A stretch of 64,000 nucleotides of DNA from Escherichia phage vB-Eco-KMB43, in sequence record OR525698.1; one strand, 5' to 3'. Positions 48,222-63,965 of this stretch are shown here, in pieces. The notes beneath the pieces were generated by a model. It did not search any database, was not told where the DNA came from, and was given only the letters and a program-made list of their open reading frames with translations. Made by a program: the position numbers and the translations under genes. Numbering within the stretch: position 1 is the stretch's first letter; each line of letters begins with the position of its first letter.

Positions 48222-48229
48222 TATAAATA
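48222..48229 (+). promoter_or_regulatory. T4-type late promoter TATAAATA upstream of gene 34
   Basis: Exact TATAAATA 29 nt upstream of the gene 34 ATG. Confidence 0.6.
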
Positions 48230-48257: not shown

Positions 48258-51200
48258 ATGGCAGATTTTTCTCAACATTTCAAGGCCACATTTGGCTTTG
48301 ACGCTGGTAATGAAAAGGTCGTCAATGTAGCATACGCAGATAAAAACACATCAACGGATGCGGTCAACGTTGAATTTTTCAATTACCATAATGGTATTAC
48401 TCAGTATGACACAACTCGCGGTTATGATCAATACGGAACTACAATCTATCAAAACCGTCCGTATTATGCAAAAGAAGATATCGCAAAACCAGCAGGTGAC
48501 TTTGACCCGACTAAATGGCAAGCACTGCGCACGGACCCACGTTGGGATTATGTTGCAGCAACTTCCGGCGATACTCCTTTAAAGTCCGGTGATTATATCG
48601 CAGCGGACTGTCAGTTTGCAAACTTGACATTCTCAATGCCTACTAATCCGGCAGAGGGCGACACTATAACAGTAAAAGATATCGGTGGCAAGTGCGGTGT
48701 TAATGAGTTATCGTTCCTTGCGGCTGGTCATGAGTTCTATCATAACGGTGTGGTAAACAACCGCAAATGGTATTGTACTACCCCTTATGCAATGAACTAC
48801 TTCATTTTTGTTCGCAATCGCTGGCACGTTTACCAGACGGGAACGGAGCCGCGCGGGGTATATGCACAGCCATCTATTGATCCGATTCAGATGCAAAACG
48901 GTGATCAGGTATTCCGTCGTAGTTCTTTAGGTAACATTGTTTTGATGCTTCCTAAGTTTGCTAATAACGGTGATATGATCCAGACTACCGATCTTGACGG
49001 ATTGACTGCAACCAACCATGTTACAGTAAAAGTACATGAAGGTGCGCAAGAACAATCGATCGGTACTTTCGGGGTAAAAGAAATTGTTGGTAAGCGTAGC
49101 GGTCATGGTGTATTCATCTTTGACAAACCGGAAAACTTATGGCGTTTGTGGGATGGCGATCAGTCTGTTCGCTTGAATCCTATCATTAGTGATACTCGCT
49201 TATCCCCTAATAGCTATGTTGCAGTATTTGGTGATCGTGATGTTACCTTGACTTTACCGACCAATGTCGAGCCGGGTGATCGTATCCAAGTTTCTATGCA
49301 GTATATGCACGGAAACCAGACTTGCCGAATCGTTACCTCAGAAGAGGATACAAAAATCCTTATGCAGAAAAACATGGTTCAGTTTCCTAAGCGTAGCGAG
49401 TACCCATTCAATGGGACCGATACATGGACGGGAGTGTCTGAATTGTCTTTCAACGCTGCAAATGATTATGTACCTTATCTGGAGTTCTCTTATTCAGAAG
49501 GTGATGATGGTAAGAAATACTGGTTGGTTGCACATGCTCACCCGATTGTAGAACGAGTAGATCCTACACGTAAAGATCGTGTTGGTGTAATTGCACTGGC
49601 TACCCAGGATGAAACAAACAAAAACCATGAAGATAATCCTAGCGACGAAGTTGCGGTGACCCCAAAGGTTCTGGCTAATAAAACAGCCAACGAAACTCGA
49701 CGCGGTATTGCTCGCATTGCAACTCAAGCGGAAACGCATCAAGATACTGGTTCCAGCTTCCTGGATGATGTTATCGTTACACCTAAAAAGTTAAATAACT
49801 GTGTTGCTACCGAAGACCGTCGTGGTGTGGTGGAAATTGCAACTCAACATGAAACAAACGAAGGTTTAGACGATACCCGCGCAATCACTCCTAAGAAGTT
49901 AGAAGAACGTCGCGCGTCCGAGGATCTTGCTGGTATCGCTGAAATTGTTCAGGTAGGCGGTAATGCTGCCGCTCTAAGGGGTGAAGCTGGTACGGGGATC
50001 TATAACATCAACGACCACGCTAAAATAGTTACTCCGCAAAACATCAACGAAGTTAAGGCGACCGAAACTTCCCGTGGTGTTGGCTATCTGGCAACTGATG
50101 CGGAAGTGCAAGGGGCTACAGAATCAACCCCGCAAGATGCTTTACTAATCACGACTCGCACGCTAACGAAACGTACTGCTACCGAATCGCGTACTGGTAT
50201 CGCTGAAATTGCAACGCAGGAAGAAACAAACTTAGGTCAAAGTGATAACCATATCATCACGCCTAAAAAGCTGCATACTCGCCGCGCAACGGAAACTTTA
50301 CACGGTTTAGCAGAAATTGCAACTCAACCGGAATTTGACGCAGGTCGTGACGATTCTCGCATTTCTACCCCATTGAAGATTAAAACCTTCTTTGAGAATG
50401 CACAGCGTTTGAAAGTAGATCCGACTCAGGGGCTTAACCTTACTGGTGATTTGTGGCAAGGTATCATGATCAGCGGTCTGGATGCAACCGAAGACACAAA
50501 AGGTGTCGCTAAAGTTGCTACTACTCAGCTTACTGACGCTGGTCAAGATGATACTACAATCATCACGCCTAAAAAGCTGCAAGGCAAAAAGGCCACCGAA
50601 GGTAAAGAAGGTATTATCCGAGTTGGTACTCAAGCCGAAACCGTGGCTGGTACACTGGCTAATGTAGCAATTTCTCCGAAGAACTTCAAATATGTTGTTC
50701 AGACAGAGGATACATGGAAAGCAACCGAAGCGCGTCGTGGATTCTTGAAAGTTGCTACTCAGGAAAACTGTTTTGTTGGTGATAATCTGCAAGGTTCTAC
50801 TCAAGAACTAGGAAACTACCAGCATGACGGAATTGCTGTTACCCCGAAAGGATTAAACTACGCACTTGCTAATTTCTTACCTAAGATGGCAACCGCTCAG
50901 AATAGTTTGAAATTAGGTAACGTAGAGGCCGCTAAATGGGCGCGTAGAGACATTGACCAGACCATAGAGAGCAATTACACGTTTAATAAAAACGTTAACG
51001 TGAAGGGCGATTTAGAGTGCTTAAAATCTGGTTCCTTTGAAACTCTGTCTGTGACTAAGAACTCGACCGATGATCCGAGTAATGGTCATCTGGTGTTGGG
51101 TGAGCGTGGAGTTGACGGTCACACCGGAATTACTCTGCATGGCACAACCGCATCGGAAGGCATGGAAAACTCATGGTCTATTATCGTTGGTGGCACGGGA

Positions 51201-51998
51201 ACAGCGCAAGTTGTTGATAGTAATGCTATCGCTTTCGGTAAAATCAATGATGGTGGATTAGTCGAGCATTACGCCTTTGCTATGGAACACAATGGCGACG
51301 CGACAGCATATAGAGACTTTATTGCAGGTCGTAACCTGTATGCGAAACAAGGCGGTTTATACATTGTTGACCAGTCTAATCCGGCAATGACTCGTTCCCC
51401 AGATGGTATGCTGAATATCGGTCACGGTGGAAGTGTTAACATCAAGGCAGGTCATCAAACGTTAACTACAGAGATCGCCGGACAGAAATATCAGATCGTA
51501 CACGCAGGAAACGCTGACGAAGTTCTTAACCGTCAGTTTGTTAAGAATGCTGGCGATACAATGGTCGGTAAGCTGACTATGGATAATGCGCCTATTGTTT
51601 CTGTTAAGCATGAAGCTAGCGCGGCAACCGCTCCGGCAATCGGTAACATCGGTTTCTGGAATATGCGAGTTACTACCCAGAACATCAAAGAAACTTATCC
51701 AGAGAAGAAAAACGGTACTCTGATGCAATGGGGTACTGACGCGGACGGGCTTACCCAGCTTTGGTCCCCTGATGGTACTCATAAACATTATATCCGTTCC
51801 GGTACTGGTGGTCAATGGACCGCATGGGGCGAAATTTACACCAAACAGAACAAGCCTACCGCTCAGGAAATCGGGGCAGTTGTTGCCGAAGGTGGTTTAA
51901 TGAACTCTATGACGGTTCGTGACTGGATCAAGGTTGGTAATGTTAAAATCATCGCCAATAATCTGACTCGTACCGTAGATTTTATCTGGGAAGACTAA
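48258..51998 (+). CDS. 34: long tail fibre proximal subunit gp34
   Basis: 1246 aa; N-terminus, internal repeats (RRGIARIATQAET..., RRGVVEIATQHETN..., TPKKL...) and C-terminus RDWIKVGNVKIIAN...FIWED match T4 gp34. Confidence 0.9.
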   Translation: MADFSQHFKATFGFDAGNEKVVNVAYADKNTSTDAVNVEFFNYHNGITQYDTTRGYDQYGTTIYQNRPYYAKEDIAKPAGDFDPTKWQALRTDPRWDYVAATSGDTPLKSGDYIAADCQFANLTFSMPTNPAEGDTITVKDIGGKCGVNELSFLAAGHEFYHNGVVNNRKWYCTTPYAMNYFIFVRNRWHVYQTGTEPRGVYAQPSIDPIQMQNGDQVFRRSSLGNIVLMLPKFANNGDMIQTTDLDGLTATNHVTVKVHEGAQEQSIGTFGVKEIVGKRSGHGVFIFDKPENLWRLWDGDQSVRLNPIISDTRLSPNSYVAVFGDRDVTLTLPTNVEPGDRIQVSMQYMHGNQTCRIVTSEEDTKILMQKNMVQFPKRSEYPFNGTDTWTGVSELSFNAANDYVPYLEFSYSEGDDGKKYWLVAHAHPIVERVDPTRKDRVGVIALATQDETNKNHEDNPSDEVAVTPKVLANKTANETRRGIARIATQAETHQDTGSSFLDDVIVTPKKLNNCVATEDRRGVVEIATQHETNEGLDDTRAITPKKLEERRASEDLAGIAEIVQVGGNAAALRGEAGTGIYNINDHAKIVTPQNINEVKATETSRGVGYLATDAEVQGATESTPQDALLITTRTLTKRTATESRTGIAEIATQEETNLGQSDNHIITPKKLHTRRATETLHGLAEIATQPEFDAGRDDSRISTPLKIKTFFENAQRLKVDPTQGLNLTGDLWQGIMISGLDATEDTKGVAKVATTQLTDAGQDDTTIITPKKLQGKKATEGKEGIIRVGTQAETVAGTLANVAISPKNFKYVVQTEDTWKATEARRGFLKVATQENCFVGDNLQGSTQELGNYQHDGIAVTPKGLNYALANFLPKMATAQNSLKLGNVEAAKWARRDIDQTIESNYTFNKNVNVKGDLECLKSGSFETLSVTKNSTDDPSNGHLVLGERGVDGHTGITLHGTTASEGMENSWSIIVGGTGTAQVVDSNAIAFGKINDGGLVEHYAFAMEHNGDATAYRDFIAGRNLYAKQGGLYIVDQSNPAMTRSPDGMLNIGHGGSVNIKAGHQTLTTEIAGQKYQIVHAGNADEVLNRQFVKNAGDTMVGKLTMDNAPIVSVKHEASAATAPAIGNIGFWNMRVTTQNIKETYPEKKNGTLMQWGTDADGLTQLWSPDGTHKHYIRSGTGGQWTAWGEIYTKQNKPTAQEIGAVVAEGGLMNSMTVRDWIKVGNVKIIANNLTRTVDFIWED

Positions 51999-52031
51999 TT
52001 AAAGGGGGCGAAAGCCCCCTATGGGGTTATT

Positions 52032-53171
52032 ATGACACAAGATATAGAATTACGCAACACCGGAATTAAGTTTGCGCATTTCGACGAAGACTCCGCGACA
52101 TTTACAAGCATTTCAGAAAATAACTCTGTGATGTATAAGCTGGAAGTGCGCGGATCTAATGCGGATTCTACCAAACCAGCAAGGATTAGATTTAATGGAG
52201 TGGAGATAGTTGGCACTGGCTATGAAAATGGCCTAAATTTTAAAGTTCTTACTCCAACTGGACAACTACACGAAGAAAAGGTATTCTATGGTCGCGGTGC
52301 TGTTTTGGCAATGCGTGATTATCTCTCTTTGCTGAAAGGTGACTATATCATTGCGATGGCAACGCATGGAGAATTGTTTGCAGATCCGATAAGTGATGTT
52401 GTATTCTCTAAGATGGGATCTGTATCATTCCCGAATCACATTTTGCTACAGCAAATGCCTCGTGTATCCTATGCAGCAATTTATTCTACTAAAATGGGCA
52501 AAATTGTGTGCGAAGGGATGCAAGCAACGAACGGGGAAGGTCAAGATTCGTCTATACAGATCGAGAAAGTTTATGATACTATAGACGATCTTGCAATAAC
52601 AGGAACACCACAACGATTTTTAGATTATCCGGTTGAATATGTTAGCGAAGATGCCGAACATTTCGAGCTAATACAATGGCCTCATGATGAGATCAGCTCA
52701 CCACTTGAAGATTTTAACATAAAGGCAGGTGACAAACTATCAATATCCTTTGAATTGTTCCGTGATAGTGCCGCAGCCGCAGCCAACGTAACAGCGCGTT
52801 TCTATCACAACTACTTCACTGATGGACAATATCAAACTGGCGTTCGTTATAATGCCAGCCAGAAAGATCAATGGGAAAAGTTTGAAGCCGTCTATACCGT
52901 ACCGGAAGGAGTTGATAGTGTTACCACTGGTTGTATCAGATATCCAACCAACTCAAATGAAGGTATTGTTAAAATTAGAAACATACTAATAACGCCGATC
53001 AGTGGAGTCGTCAAAACTACTGGTCCTACTTCATTTGGTGTTAACGGTATTAGAACAACTCACATTCAGGATAACGGCAATTTCGATAACCCTGTTATGA
53101 GTCTTCTTAAATTACCTAGAGACAATAAACATATCACATCCAACAACTTTAAAGAGTTCGATGTTGATTAA
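52032..53171 (+). CDS. 35: long tail fibre hinge protein gp35
   Basis: 379 aa (T4 gp35 is 372 aa) in syntenic position between 34 and 36. Confidence 0.75.
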   Translation: MTQDIELRNTGIKFAHFDEDSATFTSISENNSVMYKLEVRGSNADSTKPARIRFNGVEIVGTGYENGLNFKVLTPTGQLHEEKVFYGRGAVLAMRDYLSLLKGDYIIAMATHGELFADPISDVVFSKMGSVSFPNHILLQQMPRVSYAAIYSTKMGKIVCEGMQATNGEGQDSSIQIEKVYDTIDDLAITGTPQRFLDYPVEYVSEDAEHFELIQWPHDEISSPLEDFNIKAGDKLSISFELFRDSAAAAANVTARFYHNYFTDGQYQTGVRYNASQKDQWEKFEAVYTVPEGVDSVTTGCIRYPTNSNEGIVKIRNILITPISGVVKTTGPTSFGVNGIRTTHIQDNGNFDNPVMSLLKLPRDNKHITSNNFKEFDVD

Positions 53172-53182
53172 CATTTTTAACA

Positions 53183-53210
53183 AGCCGATCCTCGTGGTCG
53201 GCTTTATTTT
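53183..53210 (+). terminator. rho-independent terminator after gene 35
   Basis: AGCCGA-TCCTCGTGG-TCGGCT hairpin followed by TTATTTTTAT. Confidence 0.65.
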
Positions 53211-53332
53211 TATACAGTTGGTTAAAACATAACCAAAACGAAGAAAGATCTTTAGAATAATAGAAAATTTGTTTCGGTTAAAAAGTAGTCAGTGCCTACG
53301 GCACGTCGCGAAGCGATATTTTGTTAACATTC

Positions 53333-53340
53333 TATAAATA
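53333..53340 (+). promoter_or_regulatory. T4-type late promoter TATAAATA upstream of gene 36
   Basis: Exact TATAAATA 34 nt upstream of the gene 36 ATG. Confidence 0.6.
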
Positions 53341-53373
53341 CTCGGAACTATAACTAATTTTTGAGGTTACTTT

Positions 53374-54864
53374 ATGGCAGATTTGAAACATGGATCTACT
53401 GTAGGCGGATCTCCCATTTGGACGCAAGGAAACTTGACGATCCAGCCAGCGGGTGATCAGCTTTTCTATAAAGGTCATAAAATCTATACCGCTTTTGATA
53501 AACCTTCGGCTGCCGATTTTGATGCTGTTAGTGCATCTGAGGGTGGTACATTTCAGAAACTGGTCCATTTTGAGGAAGGTTTAAGCGTAGGTAGCGCATC
53601 CGGTGGAGAAACCAAAAAGAACGGGATCTTTAAAGGAAAGAGCGATGCGGCTAACTTTGATGGTGTAAGTTGGGGTTTGCATTCGTGGAAATCTATTGGT
53701 TTTGTTAATGCTCGTGATGATGTTATCATGGCTTATATTGACACTACCACAGGTGATTTTAAAACTAAAGGGACCATCGAAGGGACAACCATTAAAGACA
53801 CTGGTCAACGCGTCTATAGTCCTGTTAATAAGCCGACAAACAATGATTTGGATTTGGTGTCTCGTCGCGGTGATACTCTCACGGGAACGTATAATTTAAA
53901 CACGGCTACATTTAAACTTGATGTTAATTCGAAAATACTTGCGCGGGATCGTGGTTTCATTGCTTTCGATTCTAATGCCATTTATTTTGGAAATAGTCTT
54001 GATACTTTGGCATTCAGTAGCAAAAACGAGCCGACAATTTCTGTTAATGGCAAGGCAGGTAGATTCTACCACACCAACAATAAACCGACTAAAGCCGATG
54101 TTGGACTAGGTAATGTCACCAATGATGCACAGGTTAAACGTGCTGGTGATATTATGGAAGGTAACTTGCAAGCGCCTAGAATGTTGGCGACAAACGATCC
54201 TGCTGGTCCTAATGAATTGGTTCGTTTGAGCTACTTTGAGAAAAAATCAATGGTAGCAAATCCAACAATCATTGGAAACGTTGATTGGAACACTCTTATT
54301 AATCGCGGTATCTATCGTGTGGAAAATGCTGGATCAGGTACTAATAAACCGTCTGATAGCTATTATAACGGCGTTTTGATGGTATATCGCCCAGAAGATG
54401 CGGTCGGTACTCGTCGAATTGTTCAGGTATACTATCCTGAATCTATTGATCATCCGATGTGCTGGCGTTCTTGTTCTAATGAATCATGGACCGCATGGAA
54501 CTATGTAGATCACCGTAAATTGGCTGATGCTCGCTATGTTAATGTGACTGGCGATACCATGAGAGGTGCTTTGACAGTTCCCGCTGCAAACGGCGTTCGT
54601 ACCGCAAAAGCTAACTATAATGGTGATAATTGCTACGCTGGACTTAATAGCTTAGATGGCACAGCAATGATTCATCGTGTTAGTGATATTAAAGCGCACG
54701 AGAAACTAGGCATCACACATGATTCTAAAATTATTTTCGTTAAATCACGCAACAATACTCAGGACACCGATACATTTGAATTATACCACGAAGGACACAA
54801 ACCAACTCCTGATGATGTTGGCGCTGTTCCGCTTAATGCGGTAATTGATTTTGGTACTTTCTAA
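53374..54864 (+). CDS. 36: long tail fibre distal connector gp36 (extended, 496 aa)
   Basis: MADLKHGSTVGGSPIWTQGNLTIQPAGDQLFYKGHKIY matches T4 gp36 MADLKVGSTTGGSVIWHQGNFPLNPAGDDVLYKSFKIY; more than twice the T4 length. Confidence 0.85.
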   Translation: MADLKHGSTVGGSPIWTQGNLTIQPAGDQLFYKGHKIYTAFDKPSAADFDAVSASEGGTFQKLVHFEEGLSVGSASGGETKKNGIFKGKSDAANFDGVSWGLHSWKSIGFVNARDDVIMAYIDTTTGDFKTKGTIEGTTIKDTGQRVYSPVNKPTNNDLDLVSRRGDTLTGTYNLNTATFKLDVNSKILARDRGFIAFDSNAIYFGNSLDTLAFSSKNEPTISVNGKAGRFYHTNNKPTKADVGLGNVTNDAQVKRAGDIMEGNLQAPRMLATNDPAGPNELVRLSYFEKKSMVANPTIIGNVDWNTLINRGIYRVENAGSGTNKPSDSYYNGVLMVYRPEDAVGTRRIVQVYYPESIDHPMCWRSCSNESWTAWNYVDHRKLADARYVNVTGDTMRGALTVPAANGVRTAKANYNGDNCYAGLNSLDGTAMIHRVSDIKAHEKLGITHDSKIIFVKSRNNTQDTDTFELYHEGHKPTPDDVGAVPLNAVIDFGTF

Positions 54865-54868
54865 TTCT

Positions 54869-54890
54869 AGCGGGGATTATCCCCGCTTTT
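54869..54890 (+). terminator. rho-independent terminator after gene 36
   Basis: AGCGGGGA-TTAT-CCCCGCT hairpin followed by TTTT. Confidence 0.65.
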
Positions 54891-54931
54891 CTAAATAATA
54901 TTATTCTAACAACCGTTAAGGATTTTATAAA

Positions 54932-57730
54932 ATGGCAGATTTACAGAGAATCCAATTTAAAAGAACAAGTACGGCAGGTCGCAAGCCGGATGCGAATATT
55001 CTAACTCCGGGTGAACTTGCTATTAACCTAGCGGATCGAGAACTATATACAAAAGATGACAGCAATAATGTAATTACTTTGGGACACTTTCGCGGTGAGT
55101 TGCCATCTGATGCAAATTTAGATAATTATGGACCTACTGGTAAATTTACTGGCGTTTGGTCTAAATCAACTTCAACAAATGCGCAGCCAGCAAATAAATT
55201 CCCAGAAGAGAATGCTGTAGGTGTATTAGAAGTATTTGTGGCTGGTCAATTTGCTGGCACTCAGCGTTATACTGTTCGGTCTGGTAACGTTTATATCCGT
55301 TCTTTGTCTGCGAAATGGAATGGCGTAGATGGTCCATGGGGTCCGTGGCGCAATATTCAAACTGGCACACGTCCACTATCAACTACACTAGACTTGAATA
55401 CTTTAGGTGATGCTTCTCATTTTGGGTTATGGCGAAATAGTTTAAGTTCCATTGCATCATTTTCTCGAAATTACCCAGAAGAAGGTGGTCTCGCGCAAGG
55501 TCTTTTAGAAATTTATGAAGGTGGTAACTATTCTCGCACGCAACGTTATACTACCCGAATGGGTGTTGTATATGTTCGTTGTCTTGCTGGTGCATGGGAT
55601 CCAGAAGCTCCGAATTGGGGACCGTGGCAACAAGTAGGTATGGTTACTCCAAACACATTCTATGACGGGGATCTTAATAATTTTCGTTCTCCTGGCTTGT
55701 ATAACATTTTAGGGACTGATGCCGTTATTAACCGTCCAGTTGCAGAAGGTGTTCCGGTTGAGATGACCGGATTGCTTGAGGTTAAACAGCGTGCTTCCGG
55801 TGCCGCTATTTTCCAACGTTTCACTACCGCAGGAACGGGTGCAACTACGCGATCTCGCGTGTTTGAACGTGCGATGACAAATAACATCTGGGGAAATTGG
55901 TACGAAGTATATACGTCCTATTCTATGCCGATCACTCTGGGTATGGGTGGTGTTAAATCTCAATTAGCGGAGCTAGACTGGCAAACCTTTGATTTTGTCC
56001 CTGGTAGTATGTTTAGTGTTCCTTTGAACAAAATAAAGAATATGCCAGCAAATATGGATTGGGGGACGATTGACGGAAACTTGGTTATGTTTTCTGTCGG
56101 TCCTAGCGAACATACCGGAACGGGTCGAACTGTTCAAGTGTGGCGCGGTACTGTATCTCAGGCGAACTATCGTTATTTCGTTGTTCGTATCGCTGGTAAT
56201 CCAGGAAGTAGGACTAATACTTGTCGTCGTGTTGTTGTGGAAGATGGTCGCCACACATGGACAGCGCAACAAGATTTTAATGGTGCAGTTAACTTCGGTG
56301 CTCCTACCAATTTTAACTCTACTGTTAACCTTAATAACACTACCACATTTAAAACAGAAGTTAAATTCCGCTCATCTAATGCATTCCGTATGTATGGCGG
56401 TAATTTTGGCACAATTTTCCGTAATGATGGTGAAAGTCTTTATATTCTTTCCACCGACGAAAATGATCAAGATGGAAACTTTAATACAAATAGACCTTTC
56501 CGCTATCAATTAAAAACTGGCGATGTTACTTTGGGTGGCACTAGCGGTGCTAACGCTTTAGTATTAAAAGGCGGTTCTCTTGCTGCTACCTTTAGCGGTG
56601 ATGTTAATTTAAGTAAAGGTACGCTGACGTTTGAAGCGGGTGGTAAGCAATCACGCGATTATTTCCGGTTTAATCATTGGGGTGATAGCAATAACGCTCG
56701 TGATAACATTATTCAGTTAGAAGATAGTAAAGGCGCTCATTTTTCCACTGAACGTACTTTAGCGACGGGCGCAATTAAAACTAAGTTCTTTGGTGAAGTT
56801 GAATCCGATGGTCGATTGACTATTAAACGTCCTGGTGATGCTATTGTATTATCAACAACTGCTGGTAATGCTTTGCATATTCGCGGTGATATAGACGGGA
56901 GTGGTAACTGGTATATTGGCAAGGGTGGTGCTGATAATTCGCTAGCATTTTATAGCTATGCTACTCAGGCGGCAGTACATATAACAAACAATGGTGAGAT
57001 TGCGTTAAACCCGCAAAATACCGCAATGGTTAACGTTAACCGCGACCGTGTACACATTAACGGTTCTGGATGGATTGCTAGACAACCGGGTGATTGGGGC
57101 AACCAATGGCGAGTAGAAGCTCCATTATTCGTTGATCATGGTTATGTTGGTCAAGATAGTTATTATCCTATTCTTAAAGCAAGAAGCGTTATAACCAATC
57201 AAGGATATAGCACCGCTGTTGACTTTGGTATGCGTCGTATTCCATCACAGTGGGGGCAAGCAATCATTCGCGTCGGATCCACGGAGGCTTCTCCTGATGC
57301 TGGACACCCACAAGCTATATTTGAATTCCATCATGATGGATTCTTTTATACACCAGGAAATGGTAGCTTTAGCGATGTGTATATTCGTTCTGACTCCCGT
57401 CTCAAGATTAATAAAGAAGAATTAGAATATGGAGCGGTCGAAAAAGTTTGCCGACTGAAAGTTTATACATACGATAAGGTTAAGTCTATTAAAGATCGTA
57501 GTGTTATTAAACGTGAAGTTGGTATTATTGCTCAGGATCTTGAAAAAGAATTACCGGAAGCTGTGTCTAAAGTTGAAGTTGATGGTTCTGATGTTCTGAC
57601 AATTTCTAACTCGGCAGTGAATGCTCTTTTAATTAAGGCTATTCAGGAAATGAGTGAAGAAATTAAAGAATTGAAAACGCCTCTCTTTACTAAAATTGCT
57701 CGCAAAATTAGTAAATATTTTAAATTCTAA
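54932..57730 (+). CDS. 37: long tail fibre distal subunit gp37 with C-terminal intramolecular chaperone (peptidase S74-like) domain
   Basis: MADLQRIQFKRTSTAGRKPDANILTPGELAINLADRELYTKDDSNNVITLG matches the T4 gp37 N-terminus; C-terminal ...IRSDSRLKINKEELEYG...VGIIAQDLEKELPEAV... matches the endosialidase-chaperone signature. Confidence 0.85.
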   Translation: MADLQRIQFKRTSTAGRKPDANILTPGELAINLADRELYTKDDSNNVITLGHFRGELPSDANLDNYGPTGKFTGVWSKSTSTNAQPANKFPEENAVGVLEVFVAGQFAGTQRYTVRSGNVYIRSLSAKWNGVDGPWGPWRNIQTGTRPLSTTLDLNTLGDASHFGLWRNSLSSIASFSRNYPEEGGLAQGLLEIYEGGNYSRTQRYTTRMGVVYVRCLAGAWDPEAPNWGPWQQVGMVTPNTFYDGDLNNFRSPGLYNILGTDAVINRPVAEGVPVEMTGLLEVKQRASGAAIFQRFTTAGTGATTRSRVFERAMTNNIWGNWYEVYTSYSMPITLGMGGVKSQLAELDWQTFDFVPGSMFSVPLNKIKNMPANMDWGTIDGNLVMFSVGPSEHTGTGRTVQVWRGTVSQANYRYFVVRIAGNPGSRTNTCRRVVVEDGRHTWTAQQDFNGAVNFGAPTNFNSTVNLNNTTTFKTEVKFRSSNAFRMYGGNFGTIFRNDGESLYILSTDENDQDGNFNTNRPFRYQLKTGDVTLGGTSGANALVLKGGSLAATFSGDVNLSKGTLTFEAGGKQSRDYFRFNHWGDSNNARDNIIQLEDSKGAHFSTERTLATGAIKTKFFGEVESDGRLTIKRPGDAIVLSTTAGNALHIRGDIDGSGNWYIGKGGADNSLAFYSYATQAAVHITNNGEIALNPQNTAMVNVNRDRVHINGSGWIARQPGDWGNQWRVEAPLFVDHGYVGQDSYYPILKARSVITNQGYSTAVDFGMRRIPSQWGQAIIRVGSTEASPDAGHPQAIFEFHHDGFFYTPGNGSFSDVYIRSDSRLKINKEELEYGAVEKVCRLKVYTYDKVKSIKDRSVIKREVGIIAQDLEKELPEAVSKVEVDGSDVLTISNSAVNALLIKAIQEMSEEIKELKTPLFTKIARKISKYFKF

Positions 57731-57766
57731 CAACAAGGGGGCATTGCCCCCTTTGGAGTATAAATT

Positions 57767-58549
57767 ATGGCAGTAGTTGGTGTTCCTGGTTGGATTGGAA
57801 GTTCAGCCGCAAATGAAACAGGACAAAGATGGATGAGTCAAGCGGCTGGTCAATTAAGATTGGGTGTTCCTTGCTGGATGATTCAATTTGCAGGTCGCTC
57901 GCGAGAAATTATTCATACACTTGGTGCAGACCATAACTTCAACGGTCAGTGGTTCCGTGATAGATGCTTTGAAGCAGGTAGTACACCTATAGTGTTTAAT
58001 ATCACTGGAGATTTAGTATCATATTCTAAAGATGTTCCTTTATTCTTTATGTACGGAGATACACCGAATGAATATGTTCAGTTGAATATACATGGCGTAA
58101 CGATGTATGGTCGTGGCGGGAATGGCGGTAGCAATGGTCCTGGATCAGCCGGGGGGCATTGTATTCAAAATGATATTGGTGGGAGACTAAGAATTAATAA
58201 TGGTGGAGCTATTGCAGGTGGCGGTGGCGGTGGCGGTGGTGGGTATTATTCTCCTTTTTCACAAATGAGATTAACCTTTGGCGGTGGCGGTGGGCGTCCG
58301 TTTGGTGCGCCGGGCGGATCTATTGATATGCAATCAGGCGCAACTGCTGGTACTCTTTATGCGCCCGGTTCGGGGTCCGTGAACGGTATCTATAATGGTG
58401 GAAGCGGTGGTGAGGTAGGCGCCGCAGGAGGTAGATGTAATATTCGTGGTCAAGGATCTGAATATAATGGCGGCGATTCTGGATATGCTGTTATAGGGTC
58501 TTCTCCAACGTGGCAAAATCGCGGAGCTATTTACGGACCGGCTGTTTAG
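57767..58549 (+). CDS. 38: gp38-type tail fibre adhesin with glycine-rich motifs
   Basis: 260 aa; poly-Gly islands ([37 protein letters not shown]) typical of T2/T6-type gp38 adhesins; position after gene 37. Confidence 0.75.
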
Positions 58550-58612
58550 ACGCAATTATAAAAAGAATTAAGGAAAACTCCCACGGAAGGGAACTACTAA
58601 GGAGAAACGGCT

Positions 58613-58852
58613 ATGGTCTATAATATCGTCATTGGTGCTTTGTCTAATTTCGGAATGAAACTATTGTCAAAGTTAATTAGTGAAAAGATGCTCACTAAAA
58701 TTTTCTTCTATTGCGCTCGTCGTCTTGCGGCTTATACCAATACGCCAATTGATGATCGTTTTGTGGAAGAACTTTATAAGGAGTTTAATAAAGATCAGTC
58801 AGAAGATAGTAACGAGCAAGATAAACCTAATGATAGTCAACTACCTAAATAA
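58613..58852 (+). CDS. hypothetical protein (79 aa) between gene 38 and holin
   Basis: Intact ORF with hydrophobic N-terminal segment and acidic C-terminus. Confidence 0.45.
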   Translation: MVYNIVIGALSNFGMKLLSKLISEKMLTKIFFYCARRLAAYTNTPIDDRFVEELYKEFNKDQSEDSNEQDKPNDSQLPK

Positions 58853-58885
58853 GAGTACACTGTCATAGTTATCTTAGGGCATTAT

Positions 58886-59542
58886 ATGCAAGTTTCTGAA
58901 AAAGGGAAAGACTTTGCTATCTCAAATGTCCTGCGCGCTATTTTCACAACTAAAAGCACGGAGTTGCTCGTACTTCGTGTTTTTGCTGCCGTCGTGTTGT
59001 CCATATTAGCATTTGTCGTTTATAGTAAAAACGAGTTATTTGCGCTTTATAAAGAGACTCGTTATGAGACTTATGCTCACATTCTCCAGGTAGAGAAAGA
59101 CCGCAATTTTGATAATGCAGCACAGGAGCAGTTACAGATAGTTCATGTGTCGGCTGATGCCGATTTTTCTGCTGTTTTTAGTTTTCGTCCGAAAAACCTA
59201 AACTATTTTGTTGATTTGGTGGCATATGAAGGAAAGTTACCGCATACAATCGATGAAAAAAATTTAGGCGGATTCCCTATCAATAAAACGAGTGAAGAAT
59301 ATCGTAGGCATCTTTTAGGTAAATCATATTTTACCGATAAAGATTTCCAGTATATTCCATCAAGAGAAAAGAAATTAGAGAGTATCGATATAGGGTTTAT
59401 GTATTCTTGCCCTATATTCAATCTCGATAATGTCTATTCTGGTAGTATCTCCATTGCATGGAAGAATAAACCGGATATTGACATTGAGAATTTAGATACT
59501 CTTTGCAATCAATCTGCCAGAATCCTCGGTAGGATTAGATAA
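58886..59542 (+). CDS. t: holin T
   Basis: 218 aa; ...EQLQIVHVSADADFSAVFSFRPKNLNYFVDLVAYEGKLP...YSCPIFNLDNVYSGSI...ARILGR matches T4 holin. Confidence 0.9.
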   Translation: MQVSEKGKDFAISNVLRAIFTTKSTELLVLRVFAAVVLSILAFVVYSKNELFALYKETRYETYAHILQVEKDRNFDNAAQEQLQIVHVSADADFSAVFSFRPKNLNYFVDLVAYEGKLPHTIDEKNLGGFPINKTSEEYRRHLLGKSYFTDKDFQYIPSREKKLESIDIGFMYSCPIFNLDNVYSGSISIAWKNKPDIDIENLDTLCNQSARILGRIR

Positions 59543-59550
59543 CTTAAAGG

Positions 59551-59580
59551 GGGAAGCCTTTCGGCCTCCCCTTCTTTTTT
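59551..59580 (+). terminator. rho-independent terminator after t
   Basis: Imperfect GGGGGAAGCC...GGCCTCCCC hairpin followed by TTCTTTTTT. Confidence 0.6.
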
Positions 59581-59827
59581 ATTGACGCATAGACGCGCCT
59601 GAATCGCATTTTGACGCTGTATGATGAAAACATGTAGCGTACCAGTCATCGGCTTGTTTGTCTTCGTCAGAAAACGCGTAATTTCGTTGTATGCCGTTTT
59701 CTACTTTGACCAGTGCAATAGCTGTTTCTGGAAGATCAATCAATCGGACAAAATCACCATCTTCCCACTCTACACGAGCAATATCATAGCCCATCTCAAA
59801 GTATACAATCGCTTGTTCTAATTTCAT
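59579..59827 (-). CDS. hypothetical protein (82 aa)
   Basis: Intact ORF; start overlaps the upstream stop. Confidence 0.5.
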   Translation of the reverse strand: MKLEQAIVYFEMGYDIARVEWEDGDFVRLIDLPETAIALVKVENGIQRNYAFSDEDKQADDWYATCFHHTASKCDSGASMRQ

Positions 59828-60153
59828 TCTGGAAACTTCCCGTAAACATTCTCTGCCAACTTACGTGCATCGTTTACAATATCTTTCATGTAATGACTAT
59901 AATTTTTAGCTAGATCAATGATGCAATCAACAAAGAAGTAATAGCGTCGCAGTGCTACCAGCTCAACATCTTCAAGATGACCATTTTCTCCAATCGCTGA
60001 AATATGTTTAAATTCCTTTCGGATCGCGTCCATCGCTACATTAACTTCTTTTATAATATCTTTCGTATTATATGCACCTCGACTAATCAAAATTTTGGTT
60101 AGGTCTTCTGCTTTTTCGTGAAAGTTGTCAATTTCAAACTCGATCATAATCAC
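59824..60153 (-). CDS. hypothetical protein (109 aa), paralogous to ORF 60262-60594
   Basis: C-termini ...DARKLAENVYGKFPE and ...DEARIMTENIFGKF align between the two ORFs. Confidence 0.55.
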   Translation of the reverse strand: MIMIEFEIDNFHEKAEDLTKILISRGAYNTKDIIKEVNVAMDAIRKEFKHISAIGENGHLEDVELVALRRYYFFVDCIIDLAKNYSHYMKDIVNDARKLAENVYGKFPE

Positions 60154-60261
60154 CTCTCATAATTTCACGCTGTTGTGTCAACATTTTTTCGTGGTTTGCT
60201 AATTCTATACCTTGTAATAGCATAACCAGTGCAATTTTCAATGATTCATCATCTTTCATAA

Positions 60262-60594
60262 TCAAAATTTACCGAAAATATTCTCTGTCATAATTCTTGC
60301 TTCGTCGATTATTTTCGTCATGTTCATGGTGTAGTTATGATCATTTAGTGCTTTAATGACAACGAGCAAGGAATCTAAAAACACTCGATACCGGGTATAT
60401 TCTACGCTATTTGTGAATACCGATGTTTTCTCTACTTTATCGATCAGATAGCCTAAAACCGATAGAGCCTCGTTTACTTCCCTTGTTACTTTATCGGCGC
60501 TAAACAACACCGGATAAAGACGCGGTGTGATTAACCGCGCTGCCTCTTTCAATTCGGTCGCTTTCCATGATTCATATTTGTCATAGTTAAACAT
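60262..60594 (-). CDS. hypothetical protein (110 aa), paralogous to ORF 59824-60153
   Basis: See paralogue; intact ORF. Confidence 0.55.
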   Translation of the reverse strand: MFNYDKYESWKATELKEAARLITPRLYPVLFSADKVTREVNEALSVLGYLIDKVEKTSVFTNSVEYTRYRVFLDSLLVVIKALNDHNYTMNMTKIIDEARIMTENIFGKF

Positions 60595-60606
60595 TGTATA
60601 ATGTCC

Positions 60607-60939
60607 TTACAGATGAAAACCTGTTACAATCACCGCATCGATCATACCGCTAGGAATAAACGGTTCACCCTCTTTTATTTCAACTTTGAATTGATGCCAT
60701 TTCGCTAATACTTCTTCCAGTACACCCAGCGATTCGGCGTCTGCTTTGGTGTCATCTGTCACCCATTCCGGATTCATGAGAGCATAGTTTACATAGTCCA
60801 TTTCTGGGGTCATGTCATCAATGTTAATATATTTGTAGTTGACGCGTTTCAGAATTTCAAATTCTTTATTATCAACCTGTACCATGTATAATTCAGTAGT
60901 TTCTGGAATCAGTTCCCACACAATCAGTACATTTTTCAT
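60607..60939 (-). CDS. hypothetical protein (110 aa)
   Basis: Intact ORF. Confidence 0.5.
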   Translation of the reverse strand: MKNVLIVWELIPETTELYMVQVDNKEFEILKRVNYKYINIDDMTPEMDYVNYALMNPEWVTDDTKADAESLGVLEEVLAKWHQFKVEIKEGEPFIPSGMIDAVIVTGFHL

Positions 60940-60947
60940 AGTTCACC

Positions 60948-61316
60948 TCACTTAACAAAGATTTTCTTTAATGCTTTCAGGATCGTTGCTTCCGGTGCTT
61001 CCTCCGGTGGAGGAAGCAATTCTACCACTTCCTCTTCCAACTCGATATAGTCTACCAGATATTCTACATAGAATGCAAGTGCTTCCATGAAATTAAATGC
61101 TACATCCGATTCACCACAAGCGCCTACATGCATTGTATAAACATCACTGCGATCAAGTTTGTGGATGCTTCCCAGATAGTTCCGGTTATACCAGACTTCC
61201 CACACTTTCAGCTTTCCGGTTTTGGTTGCTGTTTTATAATCGGTTTCGTAATGATGCAATTGACGTTGCAGATCATTGATAATAACACATTTTTCGTAAT
61301 TGTTTTGAATTTCCAT
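60948..61316 (-). CDS. hypothetical protein (122 aa)
   Basis: Intact ORF. Confidence 0.5.
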   Translation of the reverse strand: MEIQNNYEKCVIINDLQRQLHHYETDYKTATKTGKLKVWEVWYNRNYLGSIHKLDRSDVYTMHVGACGESDVAFNFMEALAFYVEYLVDYIELEEEVVELLPPPEEAPEATILKALKKIFVK

Positions 61317-61326
61317 GATGTAATCC

Positions 61327-61518
61327 TCACTTATCGTTAAGAAGTTCTAAAACTTTCTGTCGTACTTTGTCAATATTAGTTGATTCAAAAACTGTATGGT
61401 ATCCCCAACTTTGACCGTATGATCGCGAGCAATCCCCATATCCCCATTGTTCAACCTGATAGTATTCAAGGAATGGGTGCTGCCGAACTATGATACCATC
61501 GCGATTAAAAATTACCAT
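61327..61518 (-). CDS. hypothetical protein (63 aa)
   Basis: Intact small ORF. Confidence 0.4.
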   Translation of the reverse strand: MVIFNRDGIIVRQHPFLEYYQVEQWGYGDCSRSYGQSWGYHTVFESTNIDKVRQKVLELLNDK

Positions 61519-61541
61519 AATATAATCCTCACGTCAACAAC

Positions 61542-61829
61542 TTATTTTCGGTTGTGGTCACGATATGTTTTAAAATATCCCTCGTACCACGGTAAAATAT
61601 CTGGATTTTTACCACTATACAGACCTTTAACCATCATGTCAATAAGACCGTCCGGTGTTTGATAATTACCAGCTTTTATAAGCTCTCTGATTAAAATCTC
61701 TCTGTATATGTCTTTCGGATCTTCGTAATCAACTTGTATTGTTGTTGTGGTCTCATTCAATTTGGTTTCTGGAGTATCTCGCATCGCATCCCACCAATCT
61801 TTTGTGATCTTCATGTTATTGAATTTCAT
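61542..61829 (-). CDS. hypothetical protein (95 aa)
   Basis: Intact ORF. Confidence 0.5.
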   Translation of the reverse strand: MKFNNMKITKDWWDAMRDTPETKLNETTTTIQVDYEDPKDIYREILIRELIKAGNYQTPDGLIDMMVKGLYSGKNPDILPWYEGYFKTYRDHNRK

Positions 61830-61840
61830 AATTTAACCTC

Positions 61841-62599
61841 TTACTTGCAAACGTATTGATCTACATCAATTGCGCCACCGAATGTAGGATGACGTTTTTC
61901 GAATCGAATAGTTCCGTCGTTTGGTTCGAAAACGGAGTATTCATATAGATCTTTCTTGCCAACATTCTTATAAAACCCGCCTTTAGTCATAAGGGTTTCT
62001 TGTACGTTTGCTTTGTGTACGTTGTATTCATCAATGTATACAAAATCAACCATCTTCCCATTTTTAATGGTTACTTTAAGATCTCCTGGTTGATTTCCAT
62101 ATTTGGCATACAGTGGCGCTTCTTTAATTTTTGTGGAAATTCCATCTTTCATACTCCACTCATAACGAACGGTGCATTGATAGGTAAAAGTTTCGACCTT
62201 CGGTTCTTCTACCACTTTTGCTTCCTGTTTCGGTTGTTCTTCTTCAACCTTCGCAGAAGTCTCTGAATCGCTTTCTGACGCGGTTTCTTCTTTAGGTAAT
62301 ACATTCATCAAGTTTTGGATTTGAGCGTTGTATACAGCCTCCAGTGGCTGAATCTGCCCGATATTGATCATTGTATCACGAACAGTTTTATTCCAGTTAC
62401 GTTGCTCTTGTTTCAGAGACGGATCAATCTTAACAGCCTTAACATACACCTCATGAAGTTTAGAGTCCAGTGCGGAGATAGACTCATTAGCACAAATAAA
62501 CTTCTCTGATTTGGTAGTAGCTTTAGCGCAATCAAAGGACGCAGCGTTAGCACCGAAAGCAGTAGCAGAAAGAACGATAGCAGCGATAATGTTTTTCAT
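61841..62599 (-). CDS. secreted protein with LprI/DUF1311-like N-terminal domain
   Basis: Signal peptide MKNIIAAIVLSATAFGANA; CAKATTKSEKFICANESISALDSKL...EQRNWNKTVRD resembles the DUF1311 Cys-x-Cys helical domain. Confidence 0.55.
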   Translation of the reverse strand: MKNIIAAIVLSATAFGANAASFDCAKATTKSEKFICANESISALDSKLHEVYVKAVKIDPSLKQEQRNWNKTVRDTMINIGQIQPLEAVYNAQIQNLMNVLPKEETASESDSETSAKVEEEQPKQEAKVVEEPKVETFTYQCTVRYEWSMKDGISTKIKEAPLYAKYGNQPGDLKVTIKNGKMVDFVYIDEYNVHKANVQETLMTKGGFYKNVGKKDLYEYSVFEPNDGTIRFEKRHPTFGGAIDVDQYVCK

Positions 62600-62612
62600 A
62601 ATATATTCCTCA

Positions 62613-62653
62613 GTGTTTTGTCTTGATGGGAGTATCTTACTACTCCCTTAATC
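62613..62653 (-). promoter_or_regulatory. early promoter cassette, class with palindrome spanning the -10
   Basis: GGGAGTATCTTACTACTCCC palindrome and TGTCAA (reverse complement TTGACA). Confidence 0.55.
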
Positions 62654-62674
62654 CTGTGTCAACAACTATTTTTT

Positions 62675-62887
62675 TTAATTTTTACCCGCTCGTGCATTAA
62701 TACGCATTTTCTGCATAGCCATGATCTGGCTTACTACTTCTTCTTTACGTTCTTGCGTGATAACGTGACCAGATTCCGCAAACTCTCCCGCAACTTCTTC
62801 TACGATCTCGCGAACTTGAGAACGTCCAAAGATGCGGTTTCCTTCGTAGCTCATAAATTCAGTCACTACTTGCTCAATAGATTTCAT
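62675..62887 (-). CDS. hypothetical protein (70 aa)
   Basis: Intact ORF with GGAGAATCACATG context. Confidence 0.5.
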   Translation of the reverse strand: MKSIEQVVTEFMSYEGNRIFGRSQVREIVEEVAGEFAESGHVITQERKEEVVSQIMAMQKMRINARAGKN

Positions 62888-62907
62888 GTGATTCTCCTTT
62901 CGTTTGG

Positions 62908-62947
62908 TATGGGAGTATATTACTACTCCCTTATCTTTACGTCAACT
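62908..62947 (-). promoter_or_regulatory. early promoter cassette
   Basis: Reverse complement TTGACG-N17-TAATAT within GGGAGTAGTAATATACTCCC. Confidence 0.55.
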
Positions 62948-62952
62948 AGTTT

Positions 62953-63195
62953 TTAGAAATTTTTCGCTTCTTCTTCGGTCATCATAACCGCGCATTCGTG
63001 CATAACTTTGAAAACCGGATCAATCATGTCGAATGCTTCGCGGGACAGTTTACGAGAAGCGATTTTGATTGCTTCATCGTCTTCGACTACAGGAACAAAA
63101 ACAGTTTTCAGTTCATCGAGCACGGCAGCTTCTTTTTCATTCAGGAAGATCCCAGCGTCGTACAGTGCAACTTCGATAACATTCACTTTAACCAT
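62953..63195 (-). CDS. hypothetical protein (about 80 aa)
   Basis: Start taken at ATG 63193-63195 with GGAGG RBS; track ORF extends upstream in frame to 63258. Confidence 0.45.
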   Translation of the reverse strand: MVKVNVIEVALYDAGIFLNEKEAAVLDELKTVFVPVVEDDEAIKIASRKLSREAFDMIDPVFKVMHECAVMMTEEEAKNF

Positions 63196-63220
63196 TTTTA
63201 TTTCCTCCAGTTCGTTTCGG

Positions 63221-63260
63221 TATGGGAGTATAATACTACCGATGACCTTTGGCGTCAACT
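63221..63260 (-). promoter_or_regulatory. early promoter cassette
   Basis: GGGAGTATAATACTACC with CGTCAA (reverse complement TTGACG). Confidence 0.5.
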
Positions 63261-63460
63261 AGTTTTTTGTTATTTTCGTGAAAATTTTTCGTCGCCTCAA
63301 GTGCTTTTCGCTGGGCTTCTTGTTGTGCTTGCTGGCGTGCTGCCTCTTGCGATGCCATAACGGAAGCATTTGCGGCAGTTACAGCCGCGACCATCGCTGC
63401 GGTGTTAGCATTTACAGTACATGCGCTCGCCAACAAAGCAATCGCAATCATTTTCTTCAT
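63236..63460 (-). CDS. small secreted or lipoprotein-like protein (74 aa)
   Basis: N-terminal MKKMIAIALLASACTVNA signal-like segment followed by Ala/Gln-rich helix. Confidence 0.45.
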   Translation of the reverse strand: MKKMIAIALLASACTVNANTAAMVAAVTAANASVMASQEAARQQAQQEAQRKALEATKNFHENNKKLVDAKGHR

Positions 63461-63696
63461 AGTTTCCTCTTTAGGTTATCTTCGACCTTCACCCATTCCG
63501 CGTATTCTTGCGCGGCTACTTTCGGATTTAGTCCGTCTTCATACATTGCATCAAGTAATTCTTTGTCGGTGGGCTTATACCCTAGATAAGCCTCCACCTG
63601 ATTTTTCCAAATTTTATACCAGTTCATATTATCACCAATCAAGAGCGCGTGTCTCTGCGTCTTCCCATGCTTGATCCATAACAGCCTTGAAAACAT
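63457..63696 (-). CDS. hypothetical protein (79 aa)
   Basis: Intact ORF; start overlaps the upstream stop. Confidence 0.45.
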   Translation of the reverse strand: MFSRLLWIKHGKTQRHALLIGDNMNWYKIWKNQVEAYLGYKPTDKELLDAMYEDGLNPKVAAQEYAEWVKVEDNLKRKL

Positions 63697-63904
63697 ATTC
63701 TAGAGTATCATCTTTAGAGAATCCGAAGACCTTAGACGGGATATCTTCAATTGCTACTCCAGCAACTTCTGCATTACGCGCTTGGCAATAATGCAACTCT
63801 AAGTTATCGAGATAGCGACCGCCTAATTTCTCCATATCATCCCAGCATTTCCAGTAACCTACTTTATTTGCAATTGCTAACACTTTGCTGTTTTCGTTGC
63901 TCAT
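63632..63904 (-). CDS. hypothetical protein (about 90 aa)
   Basis: Start taken at ATG 63902-63904 (MSNENSK...) with GGAGAATCAAAGATG context; track ORF extends upstream in frame to 63964. Confidence 0.45.
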   Translation of the reverse strand: MSNENSKVLAIANKVGYWKCWDDMEKLGGRYLDNLELHYCQARNAEVAGVAIEDIPSKVFGFSKDDTLEYVFKAVMDQAWEDAETRALDW

Positions 63905-63926
63905 CTTTGATTCTCCTTTTGTTTGG

Positions 63927-63965
63927 AATGGGAGTATATTACTACTCCCATTATTCAGTGTCAAT
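63927..63965 (-). promoter_or_regulatory. early promoter cassette
   Basis: GGGAGTATATTACTACTCCC palindrome and TGTCAA. Confidence 0.5.

Follow-up and report, generated by a model that had tools for sequence, protein, structure and literature searches.

A T6-type gp37 tip and gp38 adhesin cassette in the long-tail-fibre locus of a Krischvirus genome

Which protein forms the receptor-binding tip of a long tail fibre when its distal subunit, gp37, ends in a self-cleaving chaperone domain and the next gene encodes a glycine-rich gp38 adhesin? An earlier note on this locus took the two for competing strategies that left the identity of the tip in question. Its domain assignments stand, but the puzzle dissolves, as the Peptidase_S74 domain and gp38 represent successive steps of one known pathway, in which gp38 is the predicted tip. 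The T2/T6-type arrangement, a self-cleaving domain on gp37 followed by docking of gp38, has been described since 1986.

The locus and its genomic background

Between positions 20000 and 44000, the window (the whole stretch of 64,000 nt that was analysed) has 95–98% nucleotide identity to many Krischvirus genomes, and the fibre locus has 94–96% identity to Krischvirus genomes. On these identities we assign the window to a Krischvirus genome (RB49-like Straboviridae, a T4-type E. coli phage). Positions 54932–58549 are the distal end of the Krischvirus long-tail-fibre locus, with a T6-type gp37 tip and gp38 cassette. The features of the region are as follows.

53333..53340, + strand: T4-type late-promoter motif TATAAATA, exact match, 34 nt upstream of gp36
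53374..54864, + strand: gp36, proximal part of the distal half-fibre, 496 aa (phrog_16472 over the full length; phrog_1425, E 1.4e-52)
54932-57730, + strand: gp37 precursor, ORF of 932 aa matching long-tail-fibre distal subunit families
54932..57388, + strand: gp37 aa 1-819, predicted virion-retained part ending in strand DVYIR (from the motif and the published S16/fPS alignment)
57389..57730, + strand: C-terminal intramolecular chaperone / Peptidase_S74 domain of gp37, aa 820-932 plus stop codon
57735..57753, + strand: GC-rich hairpin AAGGGGGC-ATT-GCCCCCTT, -14.3 kcal/mol, just past the gp37 stop
57767-58549, + strand: gp38, whole ORF, 260 aa
57767..57889, + strand: gp38 N-terminal attachment domain, aa 1-41 (PF21721, E 3.7e-18)
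57905..58549, + strand: gp38 adhesin body, aa 47-260 (PF05268, E 4.4e-71)
58613..58852, + strand: 79-aa ORF, function unassigned, between the fibre genes and the holin gene (phrog_402, E 5e-20)
58886..59542, + strand: holin t (PF11031, E 3.8e-61)

The gap between gp37 and gp38 is 36 nt, and the tail-fibre locus ends, as it does in T4, at holin t. The 79-aa ORF is also present in Krischvirus G2494, G2248 and ECD7, where it is annotated as 'Dc5'. We also searched the window for a second copy, either a gp38 relocated as in RB49 or another chaperone domain, and found none.

At the proximal end, gp36 is indeed more than twice as long as its T4 counterpart, as had been remarked before (496 aa vs 221 aa, and 216 aa in T6). 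Homology to T4 gp36 covers the first ~180 aa (38% identity over aa 1–180), after which comes an extension of ~300 aa with repeated GD(T/I)M.G.L motifs. The protein also has 496 aa in Krischvirus G2494 and G2248, and a long gp36 is typical of the genus.

The motif at 53333..53340 probably starts a gp36-gp37-gp38 late transcription unit, a reading based on its position and not on enrichment, since its six matches in the window are not above chance expectation. A second match, at 48222, lies ahead of gp34, and a terminator-like hairpin (53182–53204) follows gp35. The gp38 ribosome-binding site, GGAG, comes after the hairpin at 57735..57753. Comparable hairpins also follow gene 37 in T6, T4, G2248, ACG-C40 and Lutter, and only weak ones do so in ECD7 and KPN-12i. 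We considered and rejected a role of this hairpin as an attenuator that matches gp38 output to one adhesin per gp37 trimer. The hairpin is not tied to the adhesin, because it is also found after T4 gene 37, ahead of the gene for an unrelated chaperone, and in G2248, whose gene 37 is not followed by a gp38.

The C-terminal domain of gp37

The gp37 protein opens with the gp36-joining domain (aa 1–55), continues with three tandem repeats of ~88 aa (aa ~58–330; 26–38% identity by direct alignment) and, past a Gp34_trimer-like domain (aa 459–524), runs into the T6-type tip. A self-BLASTP search of gp37 (E<=1e-3) detected no internal repeats. Near the C-terminus, Peptidase_S74 (PF13884) significantly matches aa 820–878 (E 1.1e-10) over profile positions 1–57 of 58, scoring 42.1 bits where the curated cut-off is 22 bits. 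The earlier note had recognized an S74 chaperone in the last ~115 residues of gp37, and the profile search agrees: from Ser820 to the C-terminus there are 113 residues, and position 57380, where the note had the region begin, is aa 817 (YIRSDSRLK...).

In work on endosialidase chaperones, the catalytic dyad is the Ser of an S-D-x-x-x-K motif and the Lys at +5. The gp37 motif S820-D-S-R-L-K825, in the context DVYIR^SDSRLK, aligns to SDRRIK of S16 gp37 (PDB 6F45), and Ser820 and Lys825 are the putative nucleophile and base, respectively. A MAFFT alignment placed the S-D-V-A-L-K of distant homologs six residues upstream, on S814-D-V-Y-I-R. We rejected S814 as the cleavage serine because the residue at +5 from it is Arg and not Lys, the Pfam match starts at 820 and the S16 alignment sets the motif at 820.

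An AF2 model of aa 779–932 is of moderate confidence, with a mean pLDDT of 70.8 and values of 76–88 in the domain core and below 50 around the cleavage site. The best 12 PDB matches of this model in Foldseek are all IMC/ICA domains; matches include the MyRF ICA (7DC3; E 2.8e-5, TM 0.57–0.63), endosialidase (3GW6), GA-1 (3GUD) and T5 pb1 (4UW8). As modelled, aa 820–932 have the IMC fold, composed of a short helix, beta-hairpins and a long C-terminal helix. The homologs retrieved with the C-terminal 154-aa query were mostly short or partial proteins, which are adequate for modelling and uninformative on gene context. Profile and model together identify aa 820–932, the very end of a trimeric fibre protein, as a Peptidase_S74 intramolecular chaperone.

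In T2 and T6, gp38 is reported to cap gp37 once the C-terminus of the latter has been cleaved (PMC3157838). For S16, autocleavage of the last 113 residues of gp37 is described, which exposes the gp38 docking surface (PMC7917993), and cleavage in the fPS phages is predicted at DVYIR^SDGRLKI (PMC7917993). For T6-type gp37 the site is likewise predicted from alignment, and we infer self-cleavage of the window gp37 from the 98% identity that its domain has to the T6 one. Alternatively, the domain could stay uncleaved on the fibre, which would make gp37 the receptor-binding tip and place gp38 elsewhere or in an accessory role. The low model confidence around the cleavage site is compatible with this, and nothing speaks for it positively; with the catalytic Ser and Lys intact, near-identity to a T6 domain reported to be cleaved off before capping, and autocleavage of the homologous S16 residues, we judge retention of the domain very unlikely.

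The gp38 adhesin and the predicted tip

The gp38 protein has two Pfam matches, Gp38_N (PF21721; aa 1–41, E 3.7e-18) and GP38 (PF05268; aa 47–259, E 4.4e-71), and it also matches phrog_2056 (E 1e-109) and, among solved structures, PDB 9V85 (E 1.3e-76) and S16 gp38 (6F45_D; E 1.9e-46, over the full length). The matches of gp37 and gp38 alike lie well outside what chance would give. Glycine makes up 24% of its residues, with runs G9 and G5, which upholds the earlier description of a T2-type gp38 with poly-glycine islands just downstream of gp37. An alignment with T6 and G2494 gp38 shows conserved glycine motifs and variation in the intervening segments. From these features gp38 is classed as a glycine-rich T2/T6-type adhesin, whose body, with its glycine-rich motifs and variable loops, is predicted to form a beta-helix and polyglycine sandwich. 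The conserved tryptophans W9, W22 and W37 align with those of S16 gp38 (6F45_D), in which three N-terminal tryptophans plug into the gp37 tip (PMC7917993).

That gp38 is instead a T4-like assembly chaperone outside the virion, in a locus with redundant folding helpers, is suggested by the gene name and the genomic position that it has in common with T4 gene 38. Yet T4 gp38 is unrelated and PF05268 does not match it; the T2-type 'gp38' is called unrelated in the T4 record as well. A T4-type chaperone would be expected to resemble T4 gp38 and to accompany an IMC-less gp37; the window gp38 lacks that resemblance, matches the adhesin profiles and the full-length S16 adhesin, and follows a gp37 with an IMC. 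A protein 99.6% identical to it, moreover, determines Tsx dependence in FL04. We consider a chaperone role extremely improbable and continue with gp38 as an adhesin.

The identity of gp38 is 99.6% to FL04 and LF73P4, 95.4% to Yersinia phage fPS-65, 89% to T6 and 73% to G2494. The receptor of Krischvirus FL04 is Tsx (PMC12032242), and because FL04 is Tsx-dependent and its gp38 almost the same, the outer-membrane protein Tsx is most likely the receptor of the window gp38 too. According to the title of the paper on the fPS-65 phage set, LPS and OmpF are used in Yersinia; given the 95.4% identical gp38, the Tsx prediction is therefore specific to E. coli.

Taken together, the tip would assemble in the following way. 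The gp37 protein would be made as the 932-aa precursor, and its last 113 residues, the intramolecular chaperone, would drive trimerization of the fibre tip. The chaperone would then cut itself off between Arg819 and Ser820, by means of Ser820 and Lys825, leaving a new C-terminus at which three copies of strand DVYIR form a platform for gp38. One gp38 per trimer would dock by its N-terminal domain through W9, W22 and W37, and the receptor-binding tip would be gp38, not gp37, with variable loops on a polyglycine scaffold as the most likely binders of Tsx. The analysis itself shows which domains are present, along with the motif, the fold and the nearly identical sequences in T6 and FL04. Cleavage, docking, the ratio of one gp38 per trimer and the receptor are predicted from homologs and the literature. 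As a whole, S74 trimerization, self-cleavage and docking of gp38 as the tip are very probably the right explanation of the locus. Pfam finds the same S74 domain in T6 and G2494 gp37, upstream of a gp38 adhesin, and none in T4 gp37; phages with a gp38 adhesin have it paired, as a rule, with an S74-containing gp37.

Nucleotide identity to T6 ranges from 57% to 100% across 150-nt blocks, and a patchwork of this kind might be read as a recent and perhaps functionally unmatched chimera, in which the gp37 tip and gp38 belong to different lock-and-key subtypes. However, the gp37 tip and chaperone, with 98% identity to T6, and the N-terminal domain of gp38, which hardly differs from that of T6, are both T6-type, which makes them a matched pair. 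Several Krischvirus isolates have this cassette, among them FL04, a phage reported to infect E. coli. A mismatch thus has hardly any credibility, and we retain the reading of a matched gp37-gp38 pair.

T-even phages are well known to exchange tail-fibre segments. Within the 57–97% patchwork, 300 nt (57143–57442) are identical to T6, which would fit transfer of a cassette by recent recombination. It is nevertheless improbable that one co-adapted unit, made up of the chaperone domain together with the gp37 tip and the attachment domain of gp38, moves between Tequatrovirus and Krischvirus by very recent recombination, or that the released chaperone trimer has a further role after cleavage; either of these, if true, would leave the known mechanism unaltered.

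Comparison with known systems

The S74-gp37 and gp38 tip module is the standard T2/T6 type and was already known; the locus is one more T6-type adhesin cassette in a Krischvirus backbone, of little import beyond correct annotation. The use of the result lies in annotating gp37 as a precursor with a self-cleaving chaperone and gp38 as a T6-type adhesin that probably binds Tsx; this helps host-range prediction.

T4 has the same locus order, a gp37 N-terminus homologous to that of the window (58% identity, aa 1–55) and partly similar shaft sequences, but its gp37 ends in a receptor-binding needle domain of its own (Collar and Phage_fiber repeats) and relies on the chaperones gp38 and gp57A. Endosialidase, T5 pb1, GA-1 and MyRF share with the window gp37 the profile family, the predicted fold and the C-terminal position on a trimeric fibre or spike. 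In those proteins the cleaved product is itself the functional tip, whereas the cleaved end of the window gp37 is the predicted docking platform for a separate adhesin.

For S16 (PDB 6F45), the crystallized gp37 construct aligns to the window S74 domain, including S-D-x-x-x-K, and the gp38 alignment spans the whole protein and takes in the three tryptophans and the polyglycine motifs. The likeness is distant (gp37 region, E 1e-4); the loop sequences differ, and DLNVS stands before the cleavage site in place of DVYIR. The Yersinia fPS phages, from another genus and with other hosts, have 88% nucleotide identity to the window over gp37-gp38 and essentially the same DVYIR^SD motif.

T6 has a Tequatrovirus rather than a Krischvirus backbone, and the gp37 shafts of the two phages form a patchwork of blocks with 57–97% nucleotide identity, but gp37 identity reaches 98% over the last 176 aa. 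T6 and T2 share the gene order gp37-gp38-t, which in the window is joined by the extra 79-aa ORF between gp38 and t, and their gp37 ends in the same S74 domain. T6 gp38 has the same N-terminal domain and glycine-rich motifs, and the window protein differs from it at scattered variable-loop residues. The Krischvirus phages FL04, LF73P4 and G2494 have 94–96% nucleotide identity to the window across the stretch from gp36 to holin; the gp38 loops of G2494 have diverged from those of the window, which is a distinct isolate of the same kind.

Layout and ancestry of the fibre locus

A complete T4-type long-tail-fibre locus occupies positions 48258–59542 of the window on the + strand, with gene identities assigned from PHROG and Pfam scans.

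Genes of the long-tail-fibre locus (coordinates, strand, product)
48258–51998, +, gp34, 1246 aa
52032–53171, +, gp35, 379 aa
53374–54864, +, gp36, 496 aa
54932–57730, +, gp37 (distal fibre protein), 932 aa
57767–58549, +, gp38 (adhesin), 260 aa
58613–58852, +, unnamed ORF, 79 aa
58886–59542, +, holin t, 218 aa

The T4 late-promoter motif TATAAATA lies directly 5' of gp34 (48222) and gp36 (53333), and gp35 is followed by a terminator-like hairpin. A weak Pfam match to the ILEI domain, below the cut-off, falls within gp35 (E 5e-4, aa 66–133). The 79-aa ORF that separates the fibre genes from holin t belongs to phrog_402 and is conserved across Krischvirus with or without an adjacent gp38 gene (G2494, G2248, and ECD7, where it is called 'Dc5'). 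It probably corresponds to the 'small ORF of unknown function' described in RB49 at the position of g38. Past holin t, the - strand of 59579–63964 carries a series of small ORFs (63–252 aa) common to other genomes of Krischvirus, whose annotation lists them as hypothetical proteins. The window, over its full 64,000 nt, yielded no tRNA genes.

The DNA of the fibre locus is 95.9, 93.8, and 95.5 per cent identical to Krischvirus LF73P4, FL04, and G2494, respectively, and positions 20000–44000 share 95–98 per cent identity with many Krischvirus genomes. By these identities, the source of the window is classified as an RB49-like (Krischvirus) Escherichia coli phage. For members of Tequatrovirus (T6 and fPS-65, for example), matches are limited to approximately 55094–58539, which corresponds to gp38 and to gp37 beyond its conserved N-terminal 55 residues. 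Compared with T6 in 150-nt blocks, the window ranges from 57 to 100 per cent identity, and positions 57143–57442, which encode the tip of gp37 and the first part of its chaperone domain, are identical. Tail-fibre genes of T-even phages typically show a patchwork of this kind. The fine scale here, together with the identical stretch, points to recent and repeated recombination between Krischvirus and Tequatrovirus.

At 496 aa, gp36 is 2.2 times as long as its T4 counterpart (221 aa), bearing out the earlier note, which gave it more than twice the T4 length. Its first ~180 residues are 38 per cent identical to T4 gp36, and the remaining ~300 form an extension with more copies of the GD(T/I)M.G.L motif. 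A 496-aa gp36 is also encoded by Krischvirus G2494 and G2248, and this form makes up a full-length PHROG family of its own; the long gp36 is a trait of the genus and no oddity of this locus.

The C-terminal domain of gp37

The feature singled out in the earlier note begins at position 57380, which is gp37 residue 817 (reading YIRSDSRLK...). That note had assigned the last ~115 residues of gp37 to a peptidase S74 intramolecular chaperone and proposed a profile search as a check. The search matched Pfam Peptidase_S74 ("chaperone of endosialidase") at aa 820–878 with E 1.1e-10 and 42.1 bits (curated cut-off, 22 bits), and 113 residues run from Ser820 to the end of the protein. A sequence search of solved structures with the C-terminal 154 aa matched the gp37 chain in the crystal structure of the gp37-gp38 complex of Salmonella phage S16 (6F45_A, E 1e-4), placing S-D-S-R-L-K of the window opposite S-D-R-R-I-K. 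A structure model of aa 779–932, for which 55 homologs were gathered and 49 aligned with the query, has a mean pLDDT of 70.8 (76–88 in the domain core) and folds as a short helix with two beta-hairpins and a long helix at the C-terminus. In a Foldseek comparison with the PDB, the best 12 matches are all intramolecular-chaperone or autoprocessing domains. They come from MyRF (ICA domain, 7DC3; E 2.8e-5, TM 0.57–0.63), endosialidase (chaperone, 3GW6), the GA-1 neck appendage (chaperone, 3GUD), and the T5 L-shaped fibre (4UW8); hits ranked lower are noise. Sequence profile, motif, position, and fold thus agree that the gp37 C-terminus is a chaperone domain.

The predicted cleavage site reads DVYIR^SDSRLKI. 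The stretch ahead of it itself looks like the catalytic motif, as aa 814–825 (57371–57406) comprise two tandem S-D hexapeptides, S814-D-V-Y-I-R and S820-D-S-R-L-K; because of this resemblance, a MAFFT alignment with distant homologs was off by six residues.

Near its N-terminus (aa ~58–330; ~55103–55921), gp37 contains three tandem ~88-aa repeats (26–38 per cent identity) that share the motif GLLEV...QRYT.R...W..W and were missed by a BLASTP self-comparison of the protein. Among PHROG families, one named 'tail collar fiber protein' matches this part of gp37. Directly 3' of the gp37 stop codon lies a strong GC-rich hairpin (57735–57753, -14.3 kcal/mol), whose stem and that of T6 differ in a single G on one arm and a single C on the opposite arm. 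Comparable hairpins of other sequence follow gene 37 in T6, G2494, ACG-C40, Lutter, T4, and G2248, regardless of the next gene; ECD7 and KPN-12i have weak hairpins only.

The gp38 adhesin and its probable receptor

The description of the downstream gene as a glycine-rich T2-type gp38 also holds: the protein matches PF05268, the adhesin profile, with E 4.4e-71 and PF21721, which describes the N-terminal attachment domain, with E 3.7e-18, and contains 24 per cent glycine, with runs of G9 and G5. It is 99.6 per cent identical to gp38 of Krischvirus FL04, which has been experimentally shown to depend on Tsx, and T6-like gp38 proteins cluster with Tsx binders in the same study (PMC12032242). This makes Tsx the most likely receptor, judging from sequence. 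The gp38 of fPS-65 is 95.4 per cent identical to that of the window; fPS-65 falls within a set of phages that, according to the title of their paper, use LPS and OmpF in Yersinia.

Pairing of the two proteins in known phages

C-terminal processing of gp37, after which gp38 caps the protein, has been reported for T2 and T6 (Trojet et al., citing Drexler et al. 1986 for T2; PMC3157838). According to the same authors, a given gp37 C-terminal subtype invariably goes with a single gp38 N-terminal subtype (PMC3157838). Salem et al. (2021), who summarize the structural work on S16, describe how the last 113 residues of its gp37 are removed by autocleavage, which uncovers the surface for gp38 docking, and give the cleavage site as DLNVS^SDRRIKK. 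For the Yersinia fPS phages, they predict that cleavage falls at DVYIR^SDGRLKI and that the DVYIR strands build a triangular tip to take up the gp38 tryptophans (PMC7917993). All three tryptophans (W9, W22, and W37) are present in gp38 of the window. We propose that gp37 is produced as the 932-aa precursor encoded by its ORF and that its C-terminal domain, as in other family members, would nucleate trimer folding. Ser820 and Lys825 would then cut the Arg819–Ser820 bond, freeing the 113-residue fragment, as suggested by the motif, the 98 per cent identity to T6, the processing reported for T2 and T6, and the S16 structure. By homology to 6F45, the gp38 N-terminal domain would dock onto the DVYIR platform, and the loops of gp38 would probably bind Tsx, as the FL04 result suggests. 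By this analogy, gp38 is expected to be the receptor-binding tip, and the chaperone domain to be absent from the mature fibre. The earlier note thus named both domains correctly, but its puzzle over which of them forms the tip had already been answered in the literature.

The combination of an S74-bearing gp37 with gp38 is not unusual. The chaperone domain occurs in 1283 phage records (tblastn). Among these, in ACG-C40 and Klebsiella phage KPN-12i, the gene after the S74 fibre gene is annotated as an adhesin or as a host-specificity tail-fibre protein, and in Lutter an unannotated, gp38-sized ORF comes next. The RB49-type Krischvirus G2248 and ECD7, in contrast, carry S74 on gp37 without a gp38 gene after it; in RB49, the gp38 gene is located elsewhere in the genome (PMC3157838). 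Beyond ~57331, the G2248 gp37 departs from its counterpart in the window; at 1014 aa it is the longer of the two, with the S74 domain still at its end, and three small ORFs of 98, 101, and 100 aa, none with a Pfam match, take the place of gp38 (6142–7048 of the G2248 locus, L004). T4 also differs from the window, as its gp37 lacks an S74 domain and the protein called gp38 there is an unrelated chaperone that matches no Pfam family. As in the window, an S74-bearing gp37 is followed by a PF05268 gp38 in both Krischvirus G2494 and T6 (S74, E 6.6e-10); T6 gp37 is 98 per cent identical to the window over its last 176 residues (tip and chaperone domain), and T6 gp38 is 89 per cent identical. The feature is an adhesin module of the T2/T6 type, already known and of textbook character, within the genome of a Krischvirus.
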